In this document: positions 2,617 through 45,363 of the stretch, piece after piece
Position numbering within the stretch: the first letter of the stretch is position 1
Layout of the letters: each line of letters starts with the position of its first letter
From: Calditrichaceae bacterium
GTDB taxonomy: Bacteria; Calditrichota; Calditrichia; Calditrichales; JBFXGD01
NCBI GenBank assembly: GCA_050173015.1
Contig: JBFXLE010000004.1
Coordinates: 67,470 to 131,469, forward strand
Direction of reading: 5' to 3'
DNA length: 64,000 nucleotides
Translations under genes and position numbers: made by a program
Notes under the pieces: model-generated
What the model was told of the DNA's origin: nothing
Databases searched by the model: none
Seen by the model: the letters and a program-made list of their open reading frames with translations, nothing else

Positions 2617-5600
2617 TGAAGCAGAGGGTTTTGATGAAGAACAGCAGTATATATATTTTTTTAATTTTCATGGTATTTGTCCTGACAGGATTTAATCAAT
2701 CATTTGGCCAGTATGAAAAAAGTACACCGACAGCCCGGAGGGTGGGAAATCATAATGGCAACCAGGTACGGACAACTTTTACGAATTATGGTGTGATTGG
2801 CCAGCCCGGAAGTCAGGGAACTAATTGCGCCTGGAAGTATGACGCCAACGGATATGCCACTGATATACAGCCTCTTGTGGGCGTCCGCCTTCCCATCCGT
2901 GATTATCGTGTCGCGGGAGTGTATGACGGTGTGCCAGATACGCTGTTTTCAGTCATTGGCTGTAATGCCGACCGCTCCGGGGTGCCCGATTATGATCCGG
3001 GTGGCGGTCAGTTTTGGGGATTTGAACCGATCCCCGGTTTTTTTAATCCATCCCTCGATGCATTAGGTATCGGCGTGGCCATGAATCATCTCCCGCAAAC
3101 CTGGCCCGCGTATTGGCCGGATCATCCTGATTGGATAGGTAGTAACGGAAGCGCGGAATGGAATGGTTACTTCGGCCGCGGCGTGGAGAATTCTGATCAG
3201 GAGAGTTATTTTTTGATGGATGATGCCAATGATCTGAAAATGTGGCAGCGCTATCAATTCTTGCCCGACAGTAATGATACAAGCCGCAAGGGACAGGGAA
3301 TTCAGGTGGCTGTTCGGGGTATGCAATGGTCCAATTTTCTGGCGCAGGATGTCATCTTCTGGGTTTATGAAATTACGAACGTGGGGACGGAAGTTTATGA
3401 CCAGGCTTCTTTTGGAACTTTAATAGGCACTTATCTGGGTGTCGGGCCCCAGGGCGGAACGGAATGGATGGATGACGCTTCATTCTTTAATGTCCGCGAA
3501 GCGATCGTTTATACCTGGGACTTTGATCAATACATCAATCCTTCGGCGAATCCCAAATGGCAGCCCAATCCATATGAAGTCGGTTATATCGGATACGCGT
3601 TTCTGGAATCTCCGGGTAACCCTTACGATGGCATTGACAATGACGGGGACAACGCGCCCAGTGGTTCAGCTCCGTATTTTAATGAGGGAGACTTTGTTCC
3701 GCGGACAGTCAAGGCCGGTGATCGATTAATTTTGATCAATAAGGATACCTATGAAAGGACTTTATTTGTCATGCCCAATGAGCGGACTAATGTTGTCTCT
3801 CTCGGCAAGACATTTACACTTATCCCCGATACAACTATCCTTGAAGAAGGTAATATGAAGCTTGGAGGCACGTCGGGTTTAACCATTAACAAAAACGCGT
3901 TTGATGGTCTGGATAATGATCTTGACGGAATGATTGACGAAAATTACCAATTGCATTATCGTCAGTATAAAGAAACCACAGAGGGGAAAGTACTCATAGA
4001 TACGCTGGCTCCGGTCCAGCATTTTGATTATATCAACGGTATCGGTCTCAACGATCTTTTAATCGACGAAGCCAGGGATGACGGTATTGACAATGATGGT
4101 GACTGGGATCCGATGGTGGATGATGTGGGCGCGGACGGGAAGCCCGGCACCGGCGATTATGGCGAGGGTGATGGTCAGCCCACAAGCGGTGAACCACATT
4201 TTGATCAAAAAGATGTGGATGAATCTGACCAGCTCGGTCTCACCAGTTTTGATTATTTTGTTCCTTCAACAGATATAGATATGAGTGATGAAAAAGAGAT
4301 GTGGGAACGATTGCGTCCGGGCCGGTTTGATGTGCCCGAGTCGATTGTCGATAACCGCGCGGTCAGGGGAGAGGACGGCGATTTTATTTTCGGATCGGGT
4401 TATTTCCCTTTACTTCCGGGAAAAACAGAACGATTCTCGATGGCTTTAGTTTTCGGTGATGACTATGAAGCTGTTGTACGCAGTAAGAATATTGCTCAGT
4501 TGATATATAATTCTAATTACAATTTTCCAAGACCCCCGACAAAACCAACTTTGACAGCGGTTCCCGGGGACGGCAGTGTGACATTGTATTGGGATAAGGA
4601 AGCCGAAAAATCTTATGATTTCTCTTTGCAGGAATTTGATTTTGAGGGGTATAAGATATACAAAAGCACGGATCCCGGTTTTTCCGACGCGAAAGTTATA
4701 TCAAATGGTTATGGACAAATTGTTGACTATAAACCCTTTGTCCAATATGATCTCAATAATTCAGTAAGCGGTTTTTTTAATTCAGACCCATTGTTATATG
4801 AGCTCAGCAGCGGTAAGCCATTTTATCTTGGCAATGACAGCGGTATTAAAAACAGTTTTGTCGATACCGATGTGATCAACGGACGCACTTATTATTATGC
4901 CGTAACAGCGTATGATCGCGGAGATGAAACCGAATCAATTTATCCGTCGGAAAACACAAAAACCATTTATCGTGACGCGGCGGGCAATCTGGTTCTTGAT
5001 AGAAATACCGCGGCTGTCACGCCGACCGCTCCGGTCGCCGGTTATGTGACTCCTGAATCCGGACTTTCCGCTGACCGTGTCGCGGGGTATTCGACATTTA
5101 TACCCTTCGCCGAAATCGTTGATCAAACCAATCTGAAACCAACAACTTATGAAATATCATTTTTAGACTCACTGATCCGGGATGTGCCGGTTGCATTCGC
5201 TTATAATATCGTTGATTCAGCGAGCGGTGATACGGTTTATTGGGGGAACACCAATCTGCAAAAGGAAAACGGAGATGTCTTTGACGGCATTCGCTTCTCT
5301 TTCAATACACGATATCAGGTATTGGATAGCGTGCGGCTTGATACATCGAAGAGCGGCTGGAATAATGAAAGAAACGATAATCTTGTTCCGGTCGTTTCAG
5401 AATTTAAATTCGGAAATATTGTCAGTACCCGATTCCCGAAAGATTATTTGTTCGTATTTTATGAAGAGAGAAACCAGACATCTTCCCGGTTACCTCTAAT
5501 TTTCGGCACCAGTTCTCCTCTTCAAACCATTGCCACAAATTTTGCCGTTTATGATGTAACGGATTCTACCAATCATAAAAAAATCCAATATGGCTTTGTG

Positions 5601-8949: not shown

Positions 8950-10764
8950 GTGTTTAACAATGCCGAAAGAAATATTTTGAAGGAAAACAAAAGGGTGTTG
9001 ACAAAGAATTTAATATATTTGTGGAGTTCTTTTTTTATTTTATCATGCGGATCGACGGTCTCAGATGAATTTTCTCCCCTGATACATGAATCAGGACGCT
9101 GGTTTGCGGAGGTCCGGACGGAAAAAGCAAATTACAAGGATGGAGAAAAAGTCAGCTTTCTGCTGTCATTCCATGATAAACCGCAGCAGGAATCTGAAGT
9201 TTTTATTCGTTACCGATATCTGAATACCGTTTTGGATTCTCAAACAATAAAGACACCGGACAGCCTGGGTATTCACTGGCAATGGAATCCCCCGGCTCAT
9301 GATTTCAGGGGGTATTTGACTGAAATATTCCTGAAGTACAATAACCGCGTATTAGATCAAATCAACATCGCGATTGATGTTTCGTCTGACTGGAGCCGTT
9401 TCCCTCGTTATGGTTTCCTTTCACGCTATCCCGAACTGAGTCAAAGCGCCATTGATTCTGTTATGCGCCGTTTGAATCGTCATCATATAAACGGGATTCA
9501 GTTTTATGACTGGCATTTTAAACATCATATGCCCCTGAGCACAAAGGACGGGCAAGTGACGGATACCTGGCCTGATATAGCCAAACGGCCCATACATCGC
9601 GAGACGATTGAAAAATATATAAAAGCTTGCGCTAAGTATGGTATGAAATCGATGGCCTATAATCTTTTGTATGGAAGCTGGGAGGACGGGCCGCGGGACG
9701 GAGCGCCCGCGAGTTGGCGGTTGTATCGCGACCAAACTCAGAAGGAACCGGTTAAAATTGATTTTGATTCGAGCTGGTCAAGTGATATTTATTGGATGAA
9801 TCCGGACAATAGGGACTGGCAGAATTATATTTTTCATCAGACTGAAAAAGTGTTTAACGCGTTACCATTTGATGGCTGGCATGTGGATCAGCTGGGTGAC
9901 TGGGGGAAGATGTGGACGGCTGATGGCAGGGAAATCATGCCGGATACGACATTTGGAGATTTTTTGACATCCGCGCGTCAATATCTCAATCGACCTCTGG
10001 TTATGAATGCTGTATCGCAGTACGGACAGGAAGAGATTGCCGCAAGCCCGGTCGAATTTCTGTACTCCGAAGTCTGGGACCCTGACAGTACATACGCTGA
10101 TTTGCTAAAGATTATCCGGCAAAACGATACCCTTGGAAATTCCCGGTTAAAGACTGTGTTCGCGGCATATGTGAATCAGGGCCTTGCCGAAAAGCCCGGC
10201 ATGGCGAACACCGCTTCCGTTTTATTGGCTGATGCCCTTATCTTTGCCGCGGGTGGAGATCACCTCGAATTGGGAGAGCATCTGCTGGTTCATCCATATT
10301 TCCCGAATAATAATCTTAAAATGGATGCCGCGTTACAAAAAAGTATGCTCGATTATTATGATTTTATGGTAGCGTATCAAAATATTTTAAGAGGGAATTT
10401 AAAAGACTCAGACATGAAAATTGAATCGGACCAAAGGATTGAATTGAGTAAGGTACCGGAGCAGGGTAAAATATGGTATTCCGCTAAAACGGATAATCGG
10501 CGGAGCGTCGCGCATCTGGTAAATTTTTCATCGGCCAAAACGATGAACTGGCGTGATGATAAGGGAATACAGACCGAACCGGATCTGATTAATCTATTGT
10601 CCATTTCATTTAATAGTACATCGCCCATACGTCAGATTTGGTATGCCTCTCCTGATTTTAATTCCGGTTCCCCTTTTACTATACCTTTCAAACAGGACGG
10701 AGATAAGATATTCCTGAAGCTGCCGCGATTCAGATACTGGTCTATGCTGGTGATGGAACAATAG
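8950..10764 (+). CDS. Glycoside hydrolase family 66-like (dextranase / cycloisomaltooligosaccharide glucanotransferase family), probable lipoprotein
   Basis: Lipobox FFILSCGS. Motifs DVSSDWSRFPRYGFLS, INGIQFYDWHFKHH, FDGWHVDQLGDWG and YSEVW recalled as GH66 catalytic-region signatures. The true start is probably internal (GTG/TTG near 8995). Confidence 0.7.
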   Translation: MFNNAERNILKENKRVLTKNLIYLWSSFFILSCGSTVSDEFSPLIHESGRWFAEVRTEKANYKDGEKVSFLLSFHDKPQQESEVFIRYRYLNTVLDSQTIKTPDSLGIHWQWNPPAHDFRGYLTEIFLKYNNRVLDQINIAIDVSSDWSRFPRYGFLSRYPELSQSAIDSVMRRLNRHHINGIQFYDWHFKHHMPLSTKDGQVTDTWPDIAKRPIHRETIEKYIKACAKYGMKSMAYNLLYGSWEDGPRDGAPASWRLYRDQTQKEPVKIDFDSSWSSDIYWMNPDNRDWQNYIFHQTEKVFNALPFDGWHVDQLGDWGKMWTADGREIMPDTTFGDFLTSARQYLNRPLVMNAVSQYGQEEIAASPVEFLYSEVWDPDSTYADLLKIIRQNDTLGNSRLKTVFAAYVNQGLAEKPGMANTASVLLADALIFAAGGDHLELGEHLLVHPYFPNNNLKMDAALQKSMLDYYDFMVAYQNILRGNLKDSDMKIESDQRIELSKVPEQGKIWYSAKTDNRRSVAHLVNFSSAKTMNWRDDKGIQTEPDLINLLSISFNSTSPIRQIWYASPDFNSGSPFTIPFKQDGDKIFLKLPRFRYWSMLVMEQ

Positions 10765-10773
10765 GAGATTTTA

Positions 10774-12822
10774 ATGCTTTTTCGGCTGAAAAATATATGG
10801 CGTGTAACATTTTTGGTGATGGTGGTATTCACACTGCAATCCCGCGCGGATAGCCTGGGTGAAATCAGGACAGATCAGGCCAGATATTCACCCGGTGATA
10901 GTGTAAACTTTAACCTTGAAATAACGGAATTACCTGGTAATTCCATCTTAAAAATTGAATATCTCTTTCTAAACAGGGTTGTTGACAGCGTTTCATATTA
11001 TCCGGGAAACGCGGGTAATTTTGAATGGGTATGGCAGACGCCCAATGATGATTTTCGGGGATATTTGGTGGTTATTTCCCTCATGCAGGATGCCGTGATA
11101 AGTGACAGGACCGTCATCGGGGTGGACGTGTCCTCCGATTGGAGCCGTTTCCCGCGTTACGGTTTTTTATCCGCGTATCCGTACTTAAGTCAGGCCGGTG
11201 TTGACGCGACCATAGCCGAGTTAAACCGCTATCATATTAACGGAATCCAATATTATGACTGGCATTATAAACATCATCTCCCGTTAAAGGGAACACCGGA
11301 AAATCCCGCCGGTACCTGGCCCGACATTGCCAACAGGACAAATTATTTCGCGACAATCAAACGGTACATCGATACCGGCCATCTGCATGGTATGAAAGCC
11401 ATGGCCTATAATTTACTTTACGGCGCCTATGAAGACGCGCAAAATGATGGTGTACAGGATGAATGGCGGCTTTTTAAAGACACTTTTCATTCTGACCCTG
11501 ATTTTCATGATTTACCGGATACATGGGCCAGTGACATCTATTTAATTGATCCATCCAATCCCGCTTGGAAAAATTATATTTTTGATAAAATGTCCGATGT
11601 TTTTGAGGCGTTACCCTTTGACGGTTGGCATATTGATCAGTTAGGTGACAGAGGGGCGCGTTATAACTACAGCGGCCAGCGGGTGGATCTTAATCAAACT
11701 TTTTTACCGTATATAGAACAAACGAAGGATGCCATGGATGTTTCGCTGGTGATGAATGCCGTCAACCAGTATGGGCAGCAGGATATCGCGAAAAGTCCGG
11801 TGGATTTTCTGTACACGGAAGTCTGGTGGCCCAATGAAACCTATTCAGATCTCGTCTTTATCATTCTGGATAACGCCTCCTATTCCGAAAATAAGCTGTC
11901 GACAGTATTGGCCGCCTATATGGATCGTTCACTTTCTTCCCAAAGCGGCTATTTTAATGCTCCGGGCGTTTTTTTGACGGACGCGGTAATATTCGCCGCG
12001 GGCGGATCGCATCTGGAATTGGGAGAGCATATGCTTGCCAATGAGTACTTTCCCAACAACAATCTGCAGATGTCTGAGGATCTGAAAAATCAATTGGTTC
12101 ATTACTATGATTTCCTGGTGGCATATCAGAACCTGCTGCGTGACGGCGGCGATTTTAATCAGGTTTATCTTACATCGGAAAACGATATTTCAATTAAATA
12201 TTACGCGCAAAAAGGGAGTGTGTGGAATTTTTCAAAACTGAAAGGTGATTTGCAGATTTTTCATTTAATCAATTTTAAAGACGCCACTTCACTTAATTGG
12301 CGGGACGATACAGGCACACAGCCGGAGCCTGAAACAATCTCAAATACACCAGTCTATTTTACGACTCAGGAAAAAGTAAAATCCCTATGGCTGGCCACTC
12401 CCGATTTTAATGGCGGTAATCCCGAAAACTTACTTTTTAGTCAGAAGAATGACACGGTTTATTTTGAAATACCGTATTTAAAGTATTGGGATATGCTTGT
12501 GGCTGAATATGATGTGAACACGGGCATTGATGATGGTGATTTAATCTATCCGGGACAAGCCAGGATGCTGGGCAATTACCCCAATCCGTTTAACCCGGAG
12601 ACCCGGATCAGTTTTGAGCTGAATGCGTCGATGCATATCGAGTTGTCGGTTTATAATATCGCGGGGCAAAAAATCGCGACTTTGGCGAATCAAAAATTTA
12701 CATCAGGGCAGCATTCCGTTTCATGGAAACCGGAAAGCAGTTTGGCCAGCGCGGTTTATTTTGCCGTTCTTAAAACAAATGAGGGCAACGTACTTTTTCA
12801 CAAACTGCTCTATTTAAAATAA
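10774..12822 (+). CDS. GH66-like paralogue with T9SS type-A C-terminal sorting domain
   Basis: Same motif set as the upstream gene (DVSSDWSRFPRYGFLS identical; FDGWHIDQLGDRG; YTEVW). C-terminus NYPNPFNPETRISFEL...AVYFAVLKT...LLYLK. Confidence 0.7.
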   Translation: MLFRLKNIWRVTFLVMVVFTLQSRADSLGEIRTDQARYSPGDSVNFNLEITELPGNSILKIEYLFLNRVVDSVSYYPGNAGNFEWVWQTPNDDFRGYLVVISLMQDAVISDRTVIGVDVSSDWSRFPRYGFLSAYPYLSQAGVDATIAELNRYHINGIQYYDWHYKHHLPLKGTPENPAGTWPDIANRTNYFATIKRYIDTGHLHGMKAMAYNLLYGAYEDAQNDGVQDEWRLFKDTFHSDPDFHDLPDTWASDIYLIDPSNPAWKNYIFDKMSDVFEALPFDGWHIDQLGDRGARYNYSGQRVDLNQTFLPYIEQTKDAMDVSLVMNAVNQYGQQDIAKSPVDFLYTEVWWPNETYSDLVFIILDNASYSENKLSTVLAAYMDRSLSSQSGYFNAPGVFLTDAVIFAAGGSHLELGEHMLANEYFPNNNLQMSEDLKNQLVHYYDFLVAYQNLLRDGGDFNQVYLTSENDISIKYYAQKGSVWNFSKLKGDLQIFHLINFKDATSLNWRDDTGTQPEPETISNTPVYFTTQEKVKSLWLATPDFNGGNPENLLFSQKNDTVYFEIPYLKYWDMLVAEYDVNTGIDDGDLIYPGQARMLGNYPNPFNPETRISFELNASMHIELSVYNIAGQKIATLANQKFTSGQHSVSWKPESSLASAVYFAVLKTNEGNVLFHKLLYLK

Positions 12823-37208: not shown

Positions 37209-38162
37209 ATGAAAGAAATAACCATCACATCAGGGAGAATGAATCCGGGTATTGATCCGGTGCTTCATGCATGGGGTTGGGAAATCCCTGTTTACCTGTT
37301 TCTTGGAGGGCTTGTTGCCGGTATTCTGTTCTTCTCAACTCTATATTATATCCGCGGCCGACAGAATGACTACCCGACAGCGGTGAAAATCGCGCCGTTA
37401 TTTGTCCCCGTGTTTTTATCAATCGGATTGCTGGCGTTGTTTCTCGATTTGTCGCATAAACTCTATTTTTGGCGACTGTACACGACAGTCCGGTGGGAGT
37501 CACCGATGTCCTGGGGCGCGTGGACGCTTCTTTTAATCTTTCCGCTCTCCATACTCTGGATCGCAACATGGATCGAGGATGTATTTCCTAAATGGAACTG
37601 GAAATATAAAATATTAAAAATCAGCGCGGATTTACTAAAAAATTACCGCAAACTTCTGGCCTGGTCGGTTATGATCCTCGCGCTTATTCTCGGTATGTAC
37701 ACAGGTATTCTGCTTTCCGCCTTTAATGCGCGTCCATTCTGGAACACATCGATACTCGGGCCCTTATTTCTGGTTTCCGGTTTATCCACAGGAACGGCGT
37801 TCATCATTTTGCTGTCAAAATCTCATGAAGAGAAGAAAAGGTTCAGTCAGATTGATTTAACCCTGATTGGTGCGGAGCTGTTCTTAATCGTTCATATGTT
37901 TATGGGATTTCTGGCCAGCACCGAGGTCCATATTCAGGCCGCGGAACTTTTCCTCGGCGGACCGTACACCGCTGTATTCTGGACATTTATCGTCGGATTA
38001 GGGCTGGTGATTCCGCTTATTGTAGAGCTTCTGGAACTTCGCGGCGTGAAGATTCCTTTGCAAATTCCGGCATTGCTTGTGCTTATGGGCGGATTTATTC
38101 TGAGATTCATTGTTGTTGACGCCGGGCAGACTTCGAGATGGCTGTATAAGTTTTTGGAGTAG
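37209..38162 (+). CDS. NrfD/PsrC-family integral-membrane quinol-interacting subunit
   Basis: Eight TM segments with an NrfD-like N-terminus (WGWEIPVYLFLGGLVAG). Confidence 0.85.
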   Translation: MKEITITSGRMNPGIDPVLHAWGWEIPVYLFLGGLVAGILFFSTLYYIRGRQNDYPTAVKIAPLFVPVFLSIGLLALFLDLSHKLYFWRLYTTVRWESPMSWGAWTLLLIFPLSILWIATWIEDVFPKWNWKYKILKISADLLKNYRKLLAWSVMILALILGMYTGILLSAFNARPFWNTSILGPLFLVSGLSTGTAFIILLSKSHEEKKRFSQIDLTLIGAELFLIVHMFMGFLASTEVHIQAAELFLGGPYTAVFWTFIVGLGLVIPLIVELLELRGVKIPLQIPALLVLMGGFILRFIVVDAGQTSRWLYKFLE

Positions 38163-38248
38163 GGAGGAAGAAGAAGTAGGAAGTAAGAAGTAGGAAGTAG
38201 GAAGGTTAAGAAAAAAGAAAAAAGAAAAAAGAAAAAAGATTAAGAACG

Positions 38249-38341
38249 GTCTGAACCTGGATTAAAATGATTAAATGATTTGGATGATTAAGAAATTGGA
38301 AATCAGAGTTGTCATTTAATCAGTCGAATCAGAGTTCAGAC
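38249..38341 (+). other. 93-nt imperfect hairpin module, copy 1
   Basis: GTCTGAAC...GTTCAGAC closing stem; GATT/AATC; inner 10-bp stem GATTAAATGA/TCATTTAATC. Confidence 0.6.
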
Positions 38342-38420
38342 AAAGAAGTAAGAAGTAGGAAGTTGGAAGTGGGAAGTGGGAAGGTTAAGAAAAAAGAAAA
38401 AAGAAAAAAGATTAAGAACG

Positions 38421-38513
38421 GTCTGAACCGGGATTAAAATGATTAAATGATTTGGATGATTAAGAAATTGGAAATCAGAGTTGTCATTTAATCAGTCGAA
38501 TCAGAGTTCAGAC
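38421..38513 (+). other. 93-nt imperfect hairpin module, copy 2
   Basis: Same arms as copy 1, with a single substitution (CCGGG versus CCTGG) in the internal loop. Confidence 0.6.
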
Positions 38514-38592
38514 AAAGAAGTAAGAAGTAGGAAGTAAGAAGTAGGAAGTGGGAAGGTTAAGAAAAAAGAAAAATGAAAAAAGATTAAGAACG

Positions 38593-38685
38593 GTCTGAAC
38601 CGGGATTAAAATGATTAAATGATTTGGATGATTAAGAAATTGGAAATCAGAGTTGTCATTTAATCAGTCGAATCAGAGTTCAGAC
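38593..38685 (+). other. 93-nt imperfect hairpin module, copy 3
   Basis: Identical to copy 2 by eye. Confidence 0.6.
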
Positions 38686-38810
38686 AAAGAAGTAAGAAGT
38701 AGGAAGGTTTAAAAAAAATATTGGGTGAGGAAGTCCGTGCCCAAAGAAAAAAGTGGATCTTAAAATAAATATAAAGAATAATTCCGGGTTTTAACGAGAG
38801 GAATCAAAAG

Positions 38811-39314
38811 ATGAAAGAACAAAAGTATTGGTCACCCTATTTATCAGGAATTGGCCTGGGGATTACACTCTTGCTGGCTTTTGTGATTATGGGGCGGGGA
38901 CTTGGCGCTTCCGGTGCCATGATGAGGTTTGAAGTCTGGTTTCTAAACCTGTTCGCAGCCGATCATGTGGCGGCAAATCCTTATTTTAGCAAATATGCAA
39001 ATAATCCTTTGTCAAACTGGCTGATTTTTGAAGTAATTGGTGTCATTATCGGCGGATTTTTATCAGGGGCTCTCGCGGGACGCCTGAAATTTAAAATCGG
39101 CAAAGGTCCGAATATTTCAAACAAAGGGCGTTTAGCTCTTGCTTTTGGTGGAGGCGCCTTAATGGGATTCGCCGCGCGTTTGGCGCGAGGATGTACCAGT
39201 GGTCTTGCGCTTACCGGTGGGGCGACGCTCGCTCTTGGAGGCTGGGTTTTTATGCTGATGATCTTCGCGGGTGGATACATGACCGCATATTTCGTCCGGA
39301 GACAGTGGTTATAA
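38811..39314 (+). CDS. YeeE/YedE-family sulfur-compound transporter, half-size subunit 1
   Basis: GRGLGASGA and ARLARGCTSGLALTGG motifs (DUF395 'sulphur transport' signature). Confidence 0.8.
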   Translation: MKEQKYWSPYLSGIGLGITLLLAFVIMGRGLGASGAMMRFEVWFLNLFAADHVAANPYFSKYANNPLSNWLIFEVIGVIIGGFLSGALAGRLKFKIGKGPNISNKGRLALAFGGGALMGFAARLARGCTSGLALTGGATLALGGWVFMLMIFAGGYMTAYFVRRQWL

Positions 39315-40615: not shown

Positions 40616-40651
40616 GAAGCAGGGCAGATAATTTCTGCTCTGCTTTTTTTT
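40616..40651 (+). terminator. Rho-independent terminator at the convergence point
   Basis: GAAGCAGGGCAGA-TAAT-TTCTGCTCTGCTT (one G:T pair) followed by T8. It abuts the stop of the minus-strand cytochrome gene. Confidence 0.7.
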
Positions 40652-42290
40652 ATTTGTTGAATAGTTCTTCTATGCCGTCGTTTTTAAATGCCCTTGTCCG
40701 CCACTTTTTGTAATCCGCCGATTTTTCCAACAATCTTCGTTGTTCCTGACTGTTTAATAAACGGCTTCCCGGTATAACAGGTTCGGTCGGCAGAGTTATT
40801 GAATTTGAAACGGAGTTCGAAAAAGCATTGCGAATTCCCAATCCGGCGGCTTTGGTATTACCGTGACAGCTTTCACAGACGCGCCCACTCTTCCCGGTTG
40901 TGTGGGGTGTGTACGCATCCCATGACCAACCGGGGCGCCCGTCAGATCTTTTCGGGATGACCGAATCAAGCCATAAATTTTCACTGGAATCCACATACGT
41001 TATAAAATACTGATGTAGCGGTCGGATAATTGAGTATTTTCCATTGGAATTTACTCCCAGCACGGGATCTTCCCATCGTCTGAACGACCAGCCTTTATAC
41101 CAGATTCCGGTTGATTCCACACCTGTTAAACGATTGGGCGAATGAGCGGTTGGCCGTACTGTCGGATCAATCAGAAACATATCGGTCAATAAATTGATAA
41201 CGGATTTATCTCCCTGCCAAATCAAATTTTCCCATATTTCATAATGTTTGGTTTCATCCAGAAAAAGATGAAGACCGTAATCCTGGTATGACCATTGCGC
41301 GTGACACGAACCGCAGGTTAAATCCGCGTGAAAATCCATATGTGATATGATGTCTTTATTAAATTTTATTACATCTTTTTTATTTGGAGCTTGTTTAAAT
41401 CCGCCGTGGCAATTTTCGCACCTGATATCCGAAGGCTGCTCTCCAAATTTTCTATTTCGGAAATCACCCATGACACTCTGTGAAGTGTGACAGTCAAGAC
41501 ATGTCATACCCGCATTCTGATGCACATCGGTAGCGAGACGGTGCTGATAGGCGCCGAAGAAGGGTTGGCTTCCGTAAGGCGTCGCGTATTCCTGATGATA
41601 GTCATGTTCAAAATAACCATAATAGTCACCACCGATATGATTATTTGAATGACAAGTCAGACAGGTTTTATCCACAACTTTTTTCTGCATTTTATGACCA
41701 TGCAGGGGCTCACCATTTTTCTGATCGAAGGGAATATGACAAGATGCGCATCCGCCGGCTCTTATTTTACCAGGCTGCTCATCCTTCCCTGAAGCGTTAA
41801 AGTGACAGGAAAGACATTTTTTTGCCAGCAGATTGTCCACGAGCTCCGGAGGGGTCGTACCTGTGGCGCGTCCTGTTCTGCCCAGCAGTTTCCATTGATC
41901 GGGATCAGGATTCGTAACAAGCGTTTTGTCTTTTCCCCAAAGATATCTGGTCTGTGAGATCATTCCCCCGGCAGAGTAGTGAAGGCTGTTTTTAAATTGA
42001 GTGATTTCTTTTTGATGACAGCTGAGACATTTTTCACGCCACCATTTTTCTAATGAAGGATTTTGTATCACACGCGAATGACCTGCCTGATCGGGTTGAA
42101 AATCAGCGTTTGGTGAGGAATGACAGTCCGCGCAGGTAATATTGCAGCTGGATTCAATACCCTTATGACAATCAACGCAGTTCTCGCCCGCGTATCCGGC
42201 GGACACGACCATGAGCAATAAAACCTGAAGGCTTATTTGTCGGATTAACCTCACAGAATAACAACTCTTAATCATCAATTTTTTCTGCAT
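40650..42290 (-). CDS. Decahaem c-type cytochrome (periplasmic)
   Basis: Signal peptide and 10 CxxCH motifs (CVDCH, CADCH, CLSCH x2, CASCH, CLTCH, CLDCH, CENCH, CGSCH, CESCH). Overlaps the upstream gene by 16 nt. Confidence 0.9.
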   Translation of the reverse strand: MQKKLMIKSCYSVRLIRQISLQVLLLMVVSAGYAGENCVDCHKGIESSCNITCADCHSSPNADFQPDQAGHSRVIQNPSLEKWWREKCLSCHQKEITQFKNSLHYSAGGMISQTRYLWGKDKTLVTNPDPDQWKLLGRTGRATGTTPPELVDNLLAKKCLSCHFNASGKDEQPGKIRAGGCASCHIPFDQKNGEPLHGHKMQKKVVDKTCLTCHSNNHIGGDYYGYFEHDYHQEYATPYGSQPFFGAYQHRLATDVHQNAGMTCLDCHTSQSVMGDFRNRKFGEQPSDIRCENCHGGFKQAPNKKDVIKFNKDIISHMDFHADLTCGSCHAQWSYQDYGLHLFLDETKHYEIWENLIWQGDKSVINLLTDMFLIDPTVRPTAHSPNRLTGVESTGIWYKGWSFRRWEDPVLGVNSNGKYSIIRPLHQYFITYVDSSENLWLDSVIPKRSDGRPGWSWDAYTPHTTGKSGRVCESCHGNTKAAGLGIRNAFSNSVSNSITLPTEPVIPGSRLLNSQEQRRLLEKSADYKKWRTRAFKNDGIEELFNK

Positions 42291-44071
42291 GGCAGGTGGC
42301 TCTCATTCCGGTACCTTTCGATACTTTGTTCAAAATTTCTATAAATGGCGTCATTATAGGTATCATGACAGGTGATACAAAGACTAACCCTGTAAATGTT
42401 TTTGATCTCTTTCATGTCAAACGGGCGGGCGGTGAGTCTTGACATGCGTTGGGTCAGCCTGCCCTGACCATCGGTCATCATCTCAAGGCTAGTTTTCCCA
42501 AGGCCGGCCGTTTGCGTATCGTACAGTTGCTGTGTTTCGAAACCATTTTCTCGCGGTTTCAGAAATCCTTCTCCCATTCCTAGACGCTTGATATTACTGT
42601 GGCAATCTATACATTCCGGCACTGATTTTCTTGTAGAATGCGGATCAAACGGGGCCATGGTCAGCCAGGTTTTTTGCTGTCTGATCTGCAAAGAGTCATT
42701 CAGTTCGGTTAAATACACCTGGCATCCGGGAGCGAAGGGCATAACCCGATCCAGATTGTCCACACCGAGTGTGGGTTTTTCATAGCGCAGGTATGAGCGT
42801 CCCTCACGCCAGTGGCCGAATGTTTCCTCATTGCTGACTTTGTCAAGCTGTTTTTTGGTGGGATCGTAAATATCATGACAACCGTAACACTGCGGCGTAT
42901 AAGCGGAGTGACAGGACTGACATCCCATCCTATCATGTCCCTGAAAATTACAGGCTTCATTATTTTTGTTTTGCGGAATTTCCAGCTCTTTACCGTCAAG
43001 TTTTCTGGTCAGCACGGGCTTTCCCGACCGCATTTCTACATTGGCGTAAAATGAACCGCGGGTTGTTCTTGCCAACAGGGAATCATCCGGCATCATAAGA
43101 TTTTGGTTGACAGATATAATTTTCCATACAATATTATCCGCGGGAGGACGTTCAAATTCCGCGTCATGACAGTCTTCACATTTGATATGCACCTGCTGTT
43201 CAAGGTGCTCGTATCTTTTGCCGTCTCCCATGATATCTTCCGCGACATGGCAGTCGATACAGGTCATTCCCGCGTCAAAATGGACATCCGCTGTTATATG
43301 ATAGTAAAATCTGCCGCCTGAGAGTTCCATTTGGGAAGTATTTCCGCCCTCATAGGGTGTGCCGTATCCTTCTGATTCAAATTTTCCCTGATAGGTCAGC
43401 GCTGTTCTGTTGGAGCGGTTATGGCATTTTTCACAGGTCGGGATATCGATTTCCACACTCAGCGTTGGATGTATTTTCAAATTCTCGTTTTTCACCAGGT
43501 GACAATCGTTGCATCCGCCACCGCGTTCTCCGATTTCTCCGGGGAAATCATTTTCGCGTTTATTGATATGACAACTCGCGCAAAGCTTTCGGAGATGCGA
43601 GGTCGCCAGCGAAGTGTCCGGAATGTTCTGATCTATATGAAGCGTGGAATCATCGGGAGTTGATTTTTCATACCATTGATAGAGAGTTGACGCAACCAGT
43701 CCTGAATTTGAAGTCATTATGGAATTTTTAACGGAATGCGCCAGATCGGAATGGCATTCGCTTTTACCGCAGGTTTGGTCAACCCAGTGTAGATCGGATG
43801 GATTCCTGACCATGCCGTAGTGCGCGTTTCTTTCATCGGCTGCATCCGGATTTCCGAGATGACAGGTGTAACATCCAAAGATTTTATTTGGGTGTGAAGA
43901 ACTCATATCCTTCTCATCAGCATGACAGGAAATACAGCGGTCAGGCCGATTAAGGGCGTTTATGTTATCATTCGTGCCGTTATTCTGTATGGTTAAAATG
44001 ATAACCAGAAGAAGAATCAAAATTGAAAGAATTAAATATGTCCGGGGTTTCATCTGTTTAAAAATTGCCAT
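42275..44071 (-). CDS. Multihaem c-type cytochrome: 11 CxxCH plus 1 CxxxxCH, with an N-terminal membrane anchor
   Basis: CISCH, CYTCH, CASCH, CNDCH, CEKCH, CIDCH x2, CEDCH, CQSCH, CYGCH, CITCH, plus CGKSECH. Shares the block DVHxxAGMTC(I/L)DCH with the decahaem paralogue. Confidence 0.9.
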   Translation of the reverse strand: MAIFKQMKPRTYLILSILILLLVIILTIQNNGTNDNINALNRPDRCISCHADEKDMSSSHPNKIFGCYTCHLGNPDAADERNAHYGMVRNPSDLHWVDQTCGKSECHSDLAHSVKNSIMTSNSGLVASTLYQWYEKSTPDDSTLHIDQNIPDTSLATSHLRKLCASCHINKRENDFPGEIGERGGGCNDCHLVKNENLKIHPTLSVEIDIPTCEKCHNRSNRTALTYQGKFESEGYGTPYEGGNTSQMELSGGRFYYHITADVHFDAGMTCIDCHVAEDIMGDGKRYEHLEQQVHIKCEDCHDAEFERPPADNIVWKIISVNQNLMMPDDSLLARTTRGSFYANVEMRSGKPVLTRKLDGKELEIPQNKNNEACNFQGHDRMGCQSCHSAYTPQCYGCHDIYDPTKKQLDKVSNEETFGHWREGRSYLRYEKPTLGVDNLDRVMPFAPGCQVYLTELNDSLQIRQQKTWLTMAPFDPHSTRKSVPECIDCHSNIKRLGMGEGFLKPRENGFETQQLYDTQTAGLGKTSLEMMTDGQGRLTQRMSRLTARPFDMKEIKNIYRVSLCITCHDTYNDAIYRNFEQSIERYRNESHLPCRKN

Positions 44072-44961
44072 CCATCCCCTCGAAAATATGTACCAATGAT
44101 GCTTTCAATCATATAAATAATAATCATAAGGAGTATAAAATACAGCACGGACTTTTCAAATTTCTTTACTACCGGTAACAGAAAGAAGGCGATGAGTATC
44201 AGCGAGGGGAAAACAACACCAGCGATCGAAACCGGCAGCCAGGCAAGAAGTTCCTGCAATCCGATGAAGTACCAGGGTCCTTTTACAACTTCAATAACCG
44301 CGTCCGGTCTGAATCCCAGTTTTGCGGGAAACAAAATTGCAAAAAGTGAGATCAATATGATTGTATATGCAAACGCGTACCGCTCCGATTTTAATCTGTG
44401 AATATGAATATAGGTAAGAATCACGGATAAGATTGAAAAAGTGGCCGCGTGATGCGTATAGATTACCGCCAGCGGTGTTGTTGAACGTTCCGACTGCAGG
44501 AGAAAGTTTGACAGAGTATTCCCAAGCGCGGGAAGCGTTTGCAGGATTCCGTCAAAGATATGCACCGCGGAAAAACTTTCCTTGCTGCCGATACTTAAAA
44601 ATCCGCTGAAGACGGTAAGAATGGAGATTACGAACAGAATGATAAGCAATCCCCATGATTTCATGGTATAGCTTTGATAAGTTTTTTTTAAAAGATATTC
44701 AATGATATGGATGACTGTTGAAATTAGAAATATATCACCCGCGTAAGAATGGAAACCGTGTAAAAAAGCACCCATATAGCCGGCGCTGATGAATTGACTG
44801 ACACTCCGGAATGGATCGTCGCCGGAAATATAGAAGGGTATGAGCATTAATCCTGAAATCAGGGCTAATACAAGGCTGCTGAGTGAAATTTCCCCCCAGC
44901 CCGGCATCCACAATGTTTTTTCAAAAAAGACTGATCGGTTCAAGATTTTATCCATTTTCAA
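44050..44961 (-). CDS. Cytochrome b of a Rieske/cyt b complex
   Basis: FHSYAGDIFLISTVIH gives H-x13-H and HAATFSILSVILTYIH gives H-x14-H, the bis-His haem ligand spacing of helices B and D. A Qo-loop-like GPWYF sits where PEWYF occurs in canonical cyt b. Confidence 0.75.
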   Translation of the reverse strand: MKMDKILNRSVFFEKTLWMPGWGEISLSSLVLALISGLMLIPFYISGDDPFRSVSQFISAGYMGAFLHGFHSYAGDIFLISTVIHIIEYLLKKTYQSYTMKSWGLLIILFVISILTVFSGFLSIGSKESFSAVHIFDGILQTLPALGNTLSNFLLQSERSTTPLAVIYTHHAATFSILSVILTYIHIHRLKSERYAFAYTIILISLFAILFPAKLGFRPDAVIEVVKGPWYFIGLQELLAWLPVSIAGVVFPSLILIAFFLLPVVKKFEKSVLYFILLMIIIYMIESIIGTYFRGDGWQFLNR

Positions 44962-44967
44962 AAAAGA

Positions 44968-45363
44968 TCAAATAATTATCTCAATATCATTCGTTTCGTT
45001 GAGTTTATAATCCAGATCGGTCAGATTTTTTTTTGCCGGTCCGGATAAATAATTCCCTTCATTGTCAAATTTGCTGCCGTGACAGGGGCAGATGAACATT
45101 TTGCTGTTTTCGTTAAAATTTACGGTGCATCCCAAATGAGTACATTTTTTTGAAATGATGCGCAATTTTTGATGGTCAGTTCTGACAAAGAAAAATTCGG
45201 TTTCCTTCAGGTCTTTCAATTTTAATTTTAGAACATGTTTCTTTTGGGAAATACGATTTAAAAAACCGGAAAATGGAAAATACAAAAGACCTGCAGCCAG
45301 AAATAAAATTCTCCGGCCTAATGTATGTAAAAATGTGCGGCGTTTGTAAGTGTTTTCCGACAT
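44968..45363 (-). CDS. Rieske [2Fe-2S] protein
   Basis: CTHLGC...CPCHGS cluster-binding boxes. N-terminal RRTFL Tat-like motif plus a TM anchor. Confidence 0.85.
   Translation of the reverse strand: MSENTYKRRTFLHTLGRRILFLAAGLLYFPFSGFLNRISQKKHVLKLKLKDLKETEFFFVRTDHQKLRIISKKCTHLGCTVNFNENSKMFICPCHGSKFDNEGNYLSGPAKKNLTDLDYKLNETNDIEIII

Follow-up and report, generated by a model that had tools for sequence, protein, structure and literature searches.

The DNA analysed here is a 64-kb stretch from a Calditrichaceae bacterium, referred to as the window, and the feature of interest is a tandem array at 38163-38710 (+ strand) that lies between a psrC-like gene and a yeeE-like gene. The psrC-like gene (37209-38162, +) encodes an NrfD membrane subunit (Pfam NrfD, E 2e-46) that is 97% identical to a protein of the metagenome-assembled genome (MAG) JBFXGD01, the next relatives being Calditrichia at ~75%. 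The gene beyond the array (38811-39314, +) is the first yeeE/Sulf_transp half-gene (Pfam Sulf_transp), which is adjacent to psrC in 77 relatives. The + strand neighbourhood as a whole comprises MerR, a molybdopterin oxidoreductase, a 4Fe-4S protein, NrfD, two YeeE halves and a rhodanese. The array begins at 38163, flush with the TAG stop of the psrC-like gene (38160-38162), and its end is 100 nt from the yeeE-like gene, whose ATG lies at 38811; an earlier sequence-only reading of the window had placed both edges correctly.

Tandem Repeats Finder located the array at 38171-38706 with a period of 172, 3.1 copies, 95% matches and a score of 972, and a separate repeat search gave three 172-nt copies with 98% and 90% identity to the reference copy, both in agreement with the 172-bp repeat that had been described behind the psrC-like stop. 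Unit lengths are 179, 172 and 172 nt followed by a partial fourth unit, and the first unit exceeds the second and third by one AAGAAAA heptad, as had also been claimed. Each unit consists of a block termed P1 (~6 GAAGTAR-type heptads), a block termed P2 and a hairpin termed HA. P2 is made up of TTAAG, then 3 or 4 AAAAAAG heptads, then ATTAAGAACG, and shares the 7-nt register of P1, and every unit has 11 heptads in that single register ahead of its 93-nt hairpin. The 7-nt phasing reported by the sequence-only reading is therefore real, but the tract is not purely polypurine, its purine content being 88-90% with a T in most heptads.

All units lie on the + strand. In unit 1, P1 (38163-38205) carries a TAG or TAA each 7 nt, P2 (38206-38248) has four AAAAAAG heptads between TTAAG and ATTAAGAACG, one heptad above units 2 and 3, and HA occupies 38249-38341. 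Unit 2 is composed of P1 at 38342-38384, P2 at 38385-38420 and HA at 38421-38513 (-30.3 kcal/mol), and unit 3 of P1 at 38514-38556, P2 at 38557-38592, with an AAAAATG variant also found in an independent MAG contig (L004), and HA at 38593-38685. The terminal partial unit (38686-38719) contains P1 (AAAGAAGTAAGAAGTAGGAAG) and a degenerate start of P2 (GTTTAAAAAAAAT). The remaining intergenic DNA (38720-38810, +) is common to strains L006 and L097 and includes an imperfect GC hairpin at ~38725-38745 and the yeeE ribosome-binding site. The array had been said to hold no open reading frame (ORF), and this stands barring one ORF of 42 aa with a TTG start, the only one of at least 40 aa inside the array region; sense frames 1-3 have 14-15 stops each across the array.

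The HA hairpin

The 93-nt HA folds with a minimum free energy of -30.3 kcal/mol through stems GTCTGAAC/GTTCAGAC and GATT/AATC, an inner 12-bp stem that contains one G.U pair, and an apical stem of 5 bp. The size of the element and its closing stems had been given correctly, the inner stem having been put at 10 bp. The ends of HA form long terminal inverted repeats with arms of ~41 nt (GTCTGAAC...GTTCAGAC); AACG precedes the element, AAAGAAGTAAG follows it, and no GTAG abuts it. Folding of the whole 648-nt intergenic region gave z = -11.8 against dinucleotide shuffles, on either strand, and the heptad tracts are unpaired in its minimum-free-energy fold.

HA variants of 93, 104, 114 and 139 nt have the same ends and differ in internal segments, the 114-nt form containing a nested CCCGCCATAGGCGGG hairpin, and lone arms were also found. 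A compensatory G>T/C>A change occurs in the HA ends of contig L088. Covariation could not be read from the 93-nt copies, among which there are zero double substitutions, the copies being at least 89% identical. Searches of Rfam, with a permissive E-value over 37-40 kb and with gathering scores over the whole window, returned nothing at or near a gathering score and only chance sub-threshold miRNA-like matches, in keeping with the sequence-only reading, which had recognised no Rfam family in the element. No tRNA or tmRNA genes were found.

Insertion into a conserved operon junction

Across 77 related loci, drawn from Calditrichota, Bacteroidota, Marinimicrobia and further members of the FCB group, the median gap between psrC and yeeE is 40 nt, as against 648 nt in the window. 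Among the 22 closest Calditrichia the gaps have a median of 31.5 nt and reach 211 nt at most. The array is inserted into an operon junction that is conserved and tight, and the insert is confined to the closest lineage, where the order of modules differs among the window strain, L006 and L097. In L006, a sister species, a single P1-P2-HA unit is followed by P1-P2 and a different short hairpin, with a gap of 410 nt. In L097, which belongs to the same species and has ~97.5% nucleotide identity to the window across the yeeE-side flank, P1 is followed by a P2 of ~10 heptads, one HA and then other modules, with a gap of 558 nt. The psrC TAG stop sits within the GGAGTAG heptad that opens the repeat tract. 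The C-terminus of PsrC, KFLE*, agrees with the KFME*/KFMQ* of relatives, in which the stop is mostly TAA.

A dispersed mosaic family

A scan of JGI/NCBI metagenome contigs with a 22-nt HA core gave 13 loci, many of them at contig ends and several per contig, and blastn coupled with ORF maps placed the P1, P2 and HA modules at no fewer than nine distinct other loci in JACDJ assemblies. As regards the lineage of these contigs, L097 is the psrC-yeeE locus itself and L095 encodes a methylmalonyl-CoA mutase with 96% identity to a protein of a Calditrichaceae MAG, the next matches being at 83%; the evidence for dispersal thus comes from contigs of the same lineage together with the window. The genes beside the other loci have nothing to do with sulfur metabolism; among their products are phosphodiesterases, a sugar transferase, an epimerase, a GHMP kinase, methylmalonyl-CoA mutase and an ABC permease. 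The view of the element as unclassified and tied to sulfur genes is consequently not sustained: the family is dispersed beside unrelated genes with essentially no preference for the sulfur-gene context, and the unit is absent from the psrC-yeeE junction of the 77 relatives.

The intergenic regions of the family are mosaics in which recurring modules are linked by P1 heptads, with P2-type heptads of the form AAGAAAA/AAGATAA. Two further hairpin modules, both found outside the window, are directly GTAG-tagged: HB is a 20-nt palindrome (GTAG-AGACACGGCATGCTGTGTCT) and HC a 19-nt palindrome (GTAG-GGGCACGATGCTCGTGCCC). A block of TTAAGAG-type heptads and a module of ~110 nt also belong to the family. 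The HB stems vary in a compensatory fashion between copies (AGACACGG…, AGACGCAG…, AGACGCAT…, AGACGGGCC…). A second orthologous junction lies between the genes for the mutase large subunit and the B12-binding subunit, where the sister species (L111:5645-5950) has TAG followed by (P1-P2-HB)x2, and the JACDJ strains (L112:7645-8156 and L095:7737-8081) have TAG followed by P1-P2-HA and other modules. Behind a conserved P1-P2 leader one hairpin module can therefore be replaced by another, and duplication of whole units is seen more than once in the family.

P1 heptads were not found in the loci of ~80 other genomes, a distant blastn of the unit against plasmids and phages gave no match, and neither did a scan of viral contigs. 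An exact 45-mer scan of GTDB representative genomes was also without a match, the representative of the species differing by one base at that place, which made the scan uninformative. HB-class palindromes do extend to Bacteroidales, including copies 4 nt past the psrC stop in L042 and L043, which suggests an old class of GTAG-tagged repetitive extragenic palindrome (REP) widespread in the FCB group. The palindrome GTAG-AGACGCAT..ATGCGTCT was seen in Bacteroidales MAGs at L042:6939-6970, L043:6939-6970 and L081:8793-8870, and is repeated nearby.

Related arrangements were noted on two other contigs. L054, from another Calditrichia MAG, carries a 137-bp x5.2 tandem array at 365-1071 with an x2 copy 1 kb away (2114-2389), the unit holding a GGCGCGATTAATCGCGCC hairpin followed by GCTCTAC, that is, a GTAG tag on the opposite strand; just past the psrC stop of the same contig (6955-7180) there are GAGCGTA/GAGCGTT heptads with GTAG-tagged GC hairpins. 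In L090 (3335-4292), 18 GAAGTAR heptads lie directly upstream of a 23S_rRNA_IVP gene (PF05635, four-helix-bundle; 3446-3901), and behind the gene comes a tandem array of 110 bp x3 with inverted GAAGTAR heptads, the sole antisense P1 seen.

Strand, stop codons and composition

At all 10 independent loci with a visible upstream gene the purine tract is on the sense strand of that gene, and at all 10 the tract begins 0-3 nt past the stop or the ORF ends inside it. The Pfam domains of the upstream ORFs are complete, and these ORFs are therefore not truncated. Among 109 heptads counted there were 49 GAAGTAG, 34 GAAGTAA and 6 GAAGTGA; a stop triplet was present in 89 of the 109 (82%), and no heptad was antisense. 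With a 7-nt period such triplets close all three frames within 21 nt. The stop at the tract junction is TAG at 6/10 loci, compared with 8/48 genes in the window (17%; binomial p = 0.002).

Composition is asymmetric as well. C makes up 6% of the sense strand of the array, and the C/G ratio of that strand, 0.30, is lower than the first percentile of the window; on the antisense strand C/G averages 4.3 and peaks at 25. From this scarcity of C it follows that Rho would find a poor substrate in a sense transcript and an excellent one in an antisense transcript, and selection against polarity alone could account for the orientation bias.

Local amplification

The three HA copies of the window share GTTGTC and CAGTCG, where other copies have GTTTTC and either CAG[AG]CG or CAAACG. 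Because these private substitutions are shared, the window copies are local duplicates and not independent insertions. Recent slippage or duplication, as had been proposed, agrees both with this and with the varying heptad numbers. P1 tracts lie on both sides of each P2-HA block, in direct orientation, and a P1 also closes the array. Unequal recombination or slippage between flanking P1 heptad tracts probably produced the array, and the terminal P1 partial unit would be the downstream direct repeat that permits duplication of a unit.

Interpretation

The array is quite probably a cluster, amplified locally, of a non-coding mosaic repeat family that is specific to this Calditrichaceae lineage, comparable to REP clusters and bacterial interspersed mosaic elements (BIMEs), to BOX and to miniature inverted-repeat transposable elements (MITEs), and not a sulfur-specific regulator. 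This explanation is built on what was observed of the repeat anatomy, the dispersal, the insertion into a conserved junction, the bias in strand and stop codon and the local amplification. A P1-P2-hairpin unit would have landed at the psrC stop codon inside the conserved psrABC-yeeE operon and would then have been duplicated to 3.1 copies in the window strain via P1-P1 recombination or slippage, the hairpin module being HA in the window and a short GTAG-tagged palindrome elsewhere in the family. Mobilisation may have been by a Y1 (RAYT-like) transposase. The element, lying on the sense strand, is most likely co-transcribed with psrABC-yeeE, and several of its properties may explain why it is tolerated within an operon: the P1 stops close three frames right behind the gene, the nearly C-free sense strand would evade Rho where an antisense one would load it to an extreme degree, and the hairpins could act, like REPs, as barriers to 3'-exonucleases or as processing sites. 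The suggestion that the array uncouples psr from yeeE through mRNA stability or processing is plausible only as a generic side effect of the REP/BIME kind, and a special tie to the regulation of sulfur genes is not supported.

A number of observations weigh against this explanation. HA, at 93 nt and without a direct GTAG tag, is not a textbook REP, and with neither a target-site duplication nor a parent insertion sequence (IS) seen it is not a textbook MITE. The array is the sole locus of the family in the 64-kb window, so that copies may be rather sparse across the genome. That the element is co-transcribed, avoids Rho and stabilises mRNA is predicted, and the perfect sense-strand bias could stem from replication-strand-specific transposition in place of selection at the RNA level. 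Neither the window nor the Calditrichaceae loci examined gave a Y1 gene in tblastn searches with E. coli RayT and the Y1 protein of contig L093. L093 itself (1263-2140), a contig of uncertain taxon and possibly from Bacteroidota, provides the sole HA-like element beside a Y1_Tnp gene. The homologues of its Y1 protein, some of them named RayT by JGI, are single-copy genes at fixed loci with REPs of their own and tandem REP arrays, and they are without HA; because of this a direct link between HA and Y1 was not established.

The Y1 gene of L093 (1357-1803; Pfam E 8e-25; NCBIfam NF033573) is of the IS200/IS605 family and is bracketed by 40-nt and 21-nt inverted repeats with small hairpins, an arrangement that is REPtron- or TIRtron-like. 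The HA-like element (139 nt, 1961-2099) is 157 nt from the gene and is itself placed between direct repeats of ~33 nt (TTTAGCGAAGCG...GGAAATA). A second type of Y1 locus was seen in L100 (2519-4189) and also in L101-L109, where a Y1 gene named RayT by JGI has a fixed position between Peptidase_M3 and glutaredoxin/Cpn10 in at least 24 contigs; in L100 it has CCCCCAAT..ATTGGGGG and CAACCCGCAGGGTTG hairpins on either side and a ~120-nt x3 tandem repeat downstream.

As a cluster of a mosaic repeat family the array puts on record REP/BIME-like elements in Calditrichota, a phylum for which no earlier description of such elements was found. The architecture is unusual in that a 7-nt-phased, expanded tag abuts stop codons, closes three frames and has a nearly C-free sense strand. 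The family offers a natural system for studying how operons tolerate repeats, whether by translation stops, Rho avoidance or RNA hairpins, and for asking whether Y1 transposases build mosaics at GTAG tags. There are also practical consequences, as the elements fragment short-read assemblies of the lineage and are unsuited to annotation as regulators of sulfur metabolism.

Alternative explanations

The array could instead be a selected cis-acting RNA element in which the hairpins stabilise psrABC mRNA or direct its processing, such that the levels of psr and of yeeE/rhodanese differ and copy number tunes the difference. The array does lie on the sense strand, at an operon junction that is conserved, and its strong hairpins alternate with unstructured purine tracts; the sense-strand G.U pair in the HA and HB stems favours sense folding, and REPs provide a precedent, as in malEFG (PMC3733652). 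However, module order and copy number vary between strains that are ~97% identical, relatives manage with a gap of ~40 nt and the same modules are found behind unrelated genes, which makes this explanation unlikely.

A further proposal treats the P1 heptads as arrays of GTAG/GTAA tags at which a RAYT-like Y1 transposase, working on single-stranded DNA, would land or cleave; hairpins would be inserted or exchanged behind them, units would be added singly, and the bias would reflect the replication strand and not transcription. It draws on the GTAG tag that adjoins the REP-like hairpins of the family, on the swapping of hairpin modules behind a conserved P1-P2 leader at orthologous junctions, on the enrichment of TAG at junctions, on the HA-like element of L093 lying 157 nt from a Y1_Tnp gene with 40-nt inverted repeats and on the described biology of RAYT and TIRYT (PMC3733652). 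It is nevertheless rather unlikely, as the Calditrichaceae sequence examined yielded no Y1 gene, the close homologues of Y1 are flanked by other repeats and lack HA, and plain recombination between heptad tracts gives the same patterns.

A broader version, and an unlikely one, is that the phased heptads are more than linkers and form the working part of a new repeat-building system in which GTAG/GTAA arrays set exactly at stop codons act as landing pads for a single-strand-specific Y1 (RAYT/TIRYT-like) enzyme or as a heptad-spaced UAG platform for an RNA-binding protein, and HA, HB and HC are inserted and swapped behind them. Were it true, Calditrichaceae would have a programmable 3'-untranslated or intercistronic cassette site behind many genes, invisible to Rho in the sense direction and a strong Rho loading site in the antisense direction.

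The remaining proposals fare much worse. A sponge or ribosome-platform RNA, in which GGA/AGGA motifs or UAG-N4-UAG titrate CsrA/RsmA, a HutP-like protein or 30S subunits and so regulate sulfur metabolism, would account for the 22 GGA motifs of the array (more than 20 had been predicted), one of which is found in every apical loop, and the heptad spacing of UAG resembles that of HutP sites. It is very improbable, however, given that there is just one GGAGG in the array, no Rfam match and no conservation of the element as a locus, that the same motifs are dispersed behind unrelated genes, and that promoter-like sites are at the level of shuffles (3 against 2.3 expected), with the only terminator-like site inside psrC and none after the hairpins on the sense strand. 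Tandem small RNA genes were rejected on similar grounds, promoter and terminator counts being no higher than in shuffles, the family dispersed and the locus not conserved. It is equally hard to credit a contingency locus at the DNA level, in which P2 mirror repeats form H-DNA and slippage of heptads switches yeeE expression: P2 is a homopurine mirror repeat of 28-35 nt and heptad number does vary across copies and strains, but the tract is outside ORFs and recognisable promoters, is 100-600 nt from the yeeE start and recurs behind many genes. With promoter and terminator signals at chance and no conservation as a locus, the sponge, the standby platform and the contingency locus, all of which the sequence-only reading had offered, found no support.

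Finally, an assembly artefact, that is an over-expanded or chimeric repeat, is highly unlikely: short-read assemblies of the same organism do end exactly at the array borders and the copy number rests on assembled sequence, but the copies are distinguished by specific substitutions and one heptad, independent assemblies (L004, L005, L006 and L097) have the unit at psrC-yeeE with variants of their own, and the border sequences are identical between the window and Logan contigs.

Other features of the window

Genes for multihaem cytochromes c (546 aa and 598 aa) lie at 40650-45363 (- strand), convergent with and directly downstream of the rhodanese gene, and in the matching Logan contig a cytochrome b-like gene comes next after the cluster. 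The psr/yeeE operon thus has respiratory genes around it. Elsewhere in the window, 9366-9533 and 11115-11282 are 72-81% identical, lie 1749 nt apart and fall in adjacent ORFs of similar size (8950-10764 and 10774-12822), which are probably tandem paralogues.

Comparison with known repeat systems

Some classes of repeat could be set aside at once. A CRISPR array was rejected, as it had been in the sequence-only reading, since its units adjoin one another directly and show 90-98% identity from end to end. Integron attC sites were rejected because the GTCTGAAC/GTTCAGAC ends misfit the RYYYAAC / GTTRRRY cores and because the flanking genes are those of a conserved syntenic operon and not cassettes. 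With CsrB/RsmZ and HutP targets the array has in common many GGA motifs, one per apical loop, and UAG triplets 7 nt apart, but it differs from CsrB/RsmZ in having neither a promoter or terminator signal nor conservation as a locus, in the dispersal of its motifs behind unrelated genes and in the want of an Rfam match.

Pneumococcal BOX elements (boxA-boxB(n)-boxC) are modular intergenic repeats whose internal module varies in tandem copy number; they form stable folds, are co-transcribed with their neighbours and have no known coding capacity. The array is like them in its modularity, its tandem-variable module, its stable structures and its non-coding nature. It has no sequence similarity to BOX, which lacks heptad purine linkers and does not abut stop codons.

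With MITEs such as the Correia elements of Neisseria and RUP (reviewed in PMC3184786) HA has in common terminal inverted repeats that bound a short non-coding element. Unlike them, HA is in nearly all cases found behind a P2 tract and not as an independent insertion. No target-site duplication was found around HA, the left flanks being AAGAACG, AAAAGCG or GGAATTT and the right flank AAAGAAG. A parent IS with HA ends was sought without success, there being no inverted 22-mer pair at IS-like spacing among the 13 metagenome loci and no match in plasmids or phages. The Y1_Tnp gene of L093, with its flanking inverted repeats and an HA-like element 157 nt downstream, resembles a TIRtron or REPtron (PMC3733652), but this is a single case on a contig of uncertain taxon and homologous Y1 loci have other repeats.

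The array behaves like a REP cluster/BIME or a BOX-type mosaic, and its sister modules, its tag and its placement with respect to ORFs tie it to the GTAG-tagged REPs. GTAG-tagged REPs between co-directional genes lie near the 3' end of the ORF before them, in many cases their GTAG terminus provides the TAG stop, and in large REP clusters the units are tandemly reiterated together with flanking DNA (Di Nocera et al. 2013, PMC3733652); the REP superfamily with its GTAG tag was also described by Nunvar et al. 2010 (PMC2817692). The Calditrichaceae family, seen at nine or more distinct loci on contigs of the same lineage and at one in the window, likewise consists of extragenic hairpin repeats just past ORFs and between co-directional genes, which form mosaic clusters with linker motifs, tandem reiteration and variation between strains. 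Its tract abuts or overlaps the stop at 10/10 loci, with TAG at 6/10, and the psrC gene of the window has TAG where relatives mostly have TAA. The window has 3.1 copies of the unit, L006 and L097 have one each, and L111 carries (P1-P2-HB)x2. There are differences as well. The 93-nt hairpin of the window falls outside the short (20-40 bp) palindromes that define REPs, a range into which HB and HC fit, and mosaic copies in Calditrichaceae have one orientation (109 heptads counted), whereas BIMEs alternate. The one find of a literature search on the heptad sequence and on Caldithrix repeats was an 18-nt palindrome of C. abyssi, which is unrelated, and no earlier description of a heptad expansion of the GTAG tag was found. 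HA is without a direct GTAG tag and follows a P1 that is an array of GTAG/GTAA/GTGG tags, and this expansion of a GTAG-like tag to phased (GAAGTAR)n and then (AAGAAAA)n, a feature not described for REPs, sets the Calditrichaceae family apart, while its sister modules HB and HC, which are directly tagged, are true units of GTAG plus palindrome.

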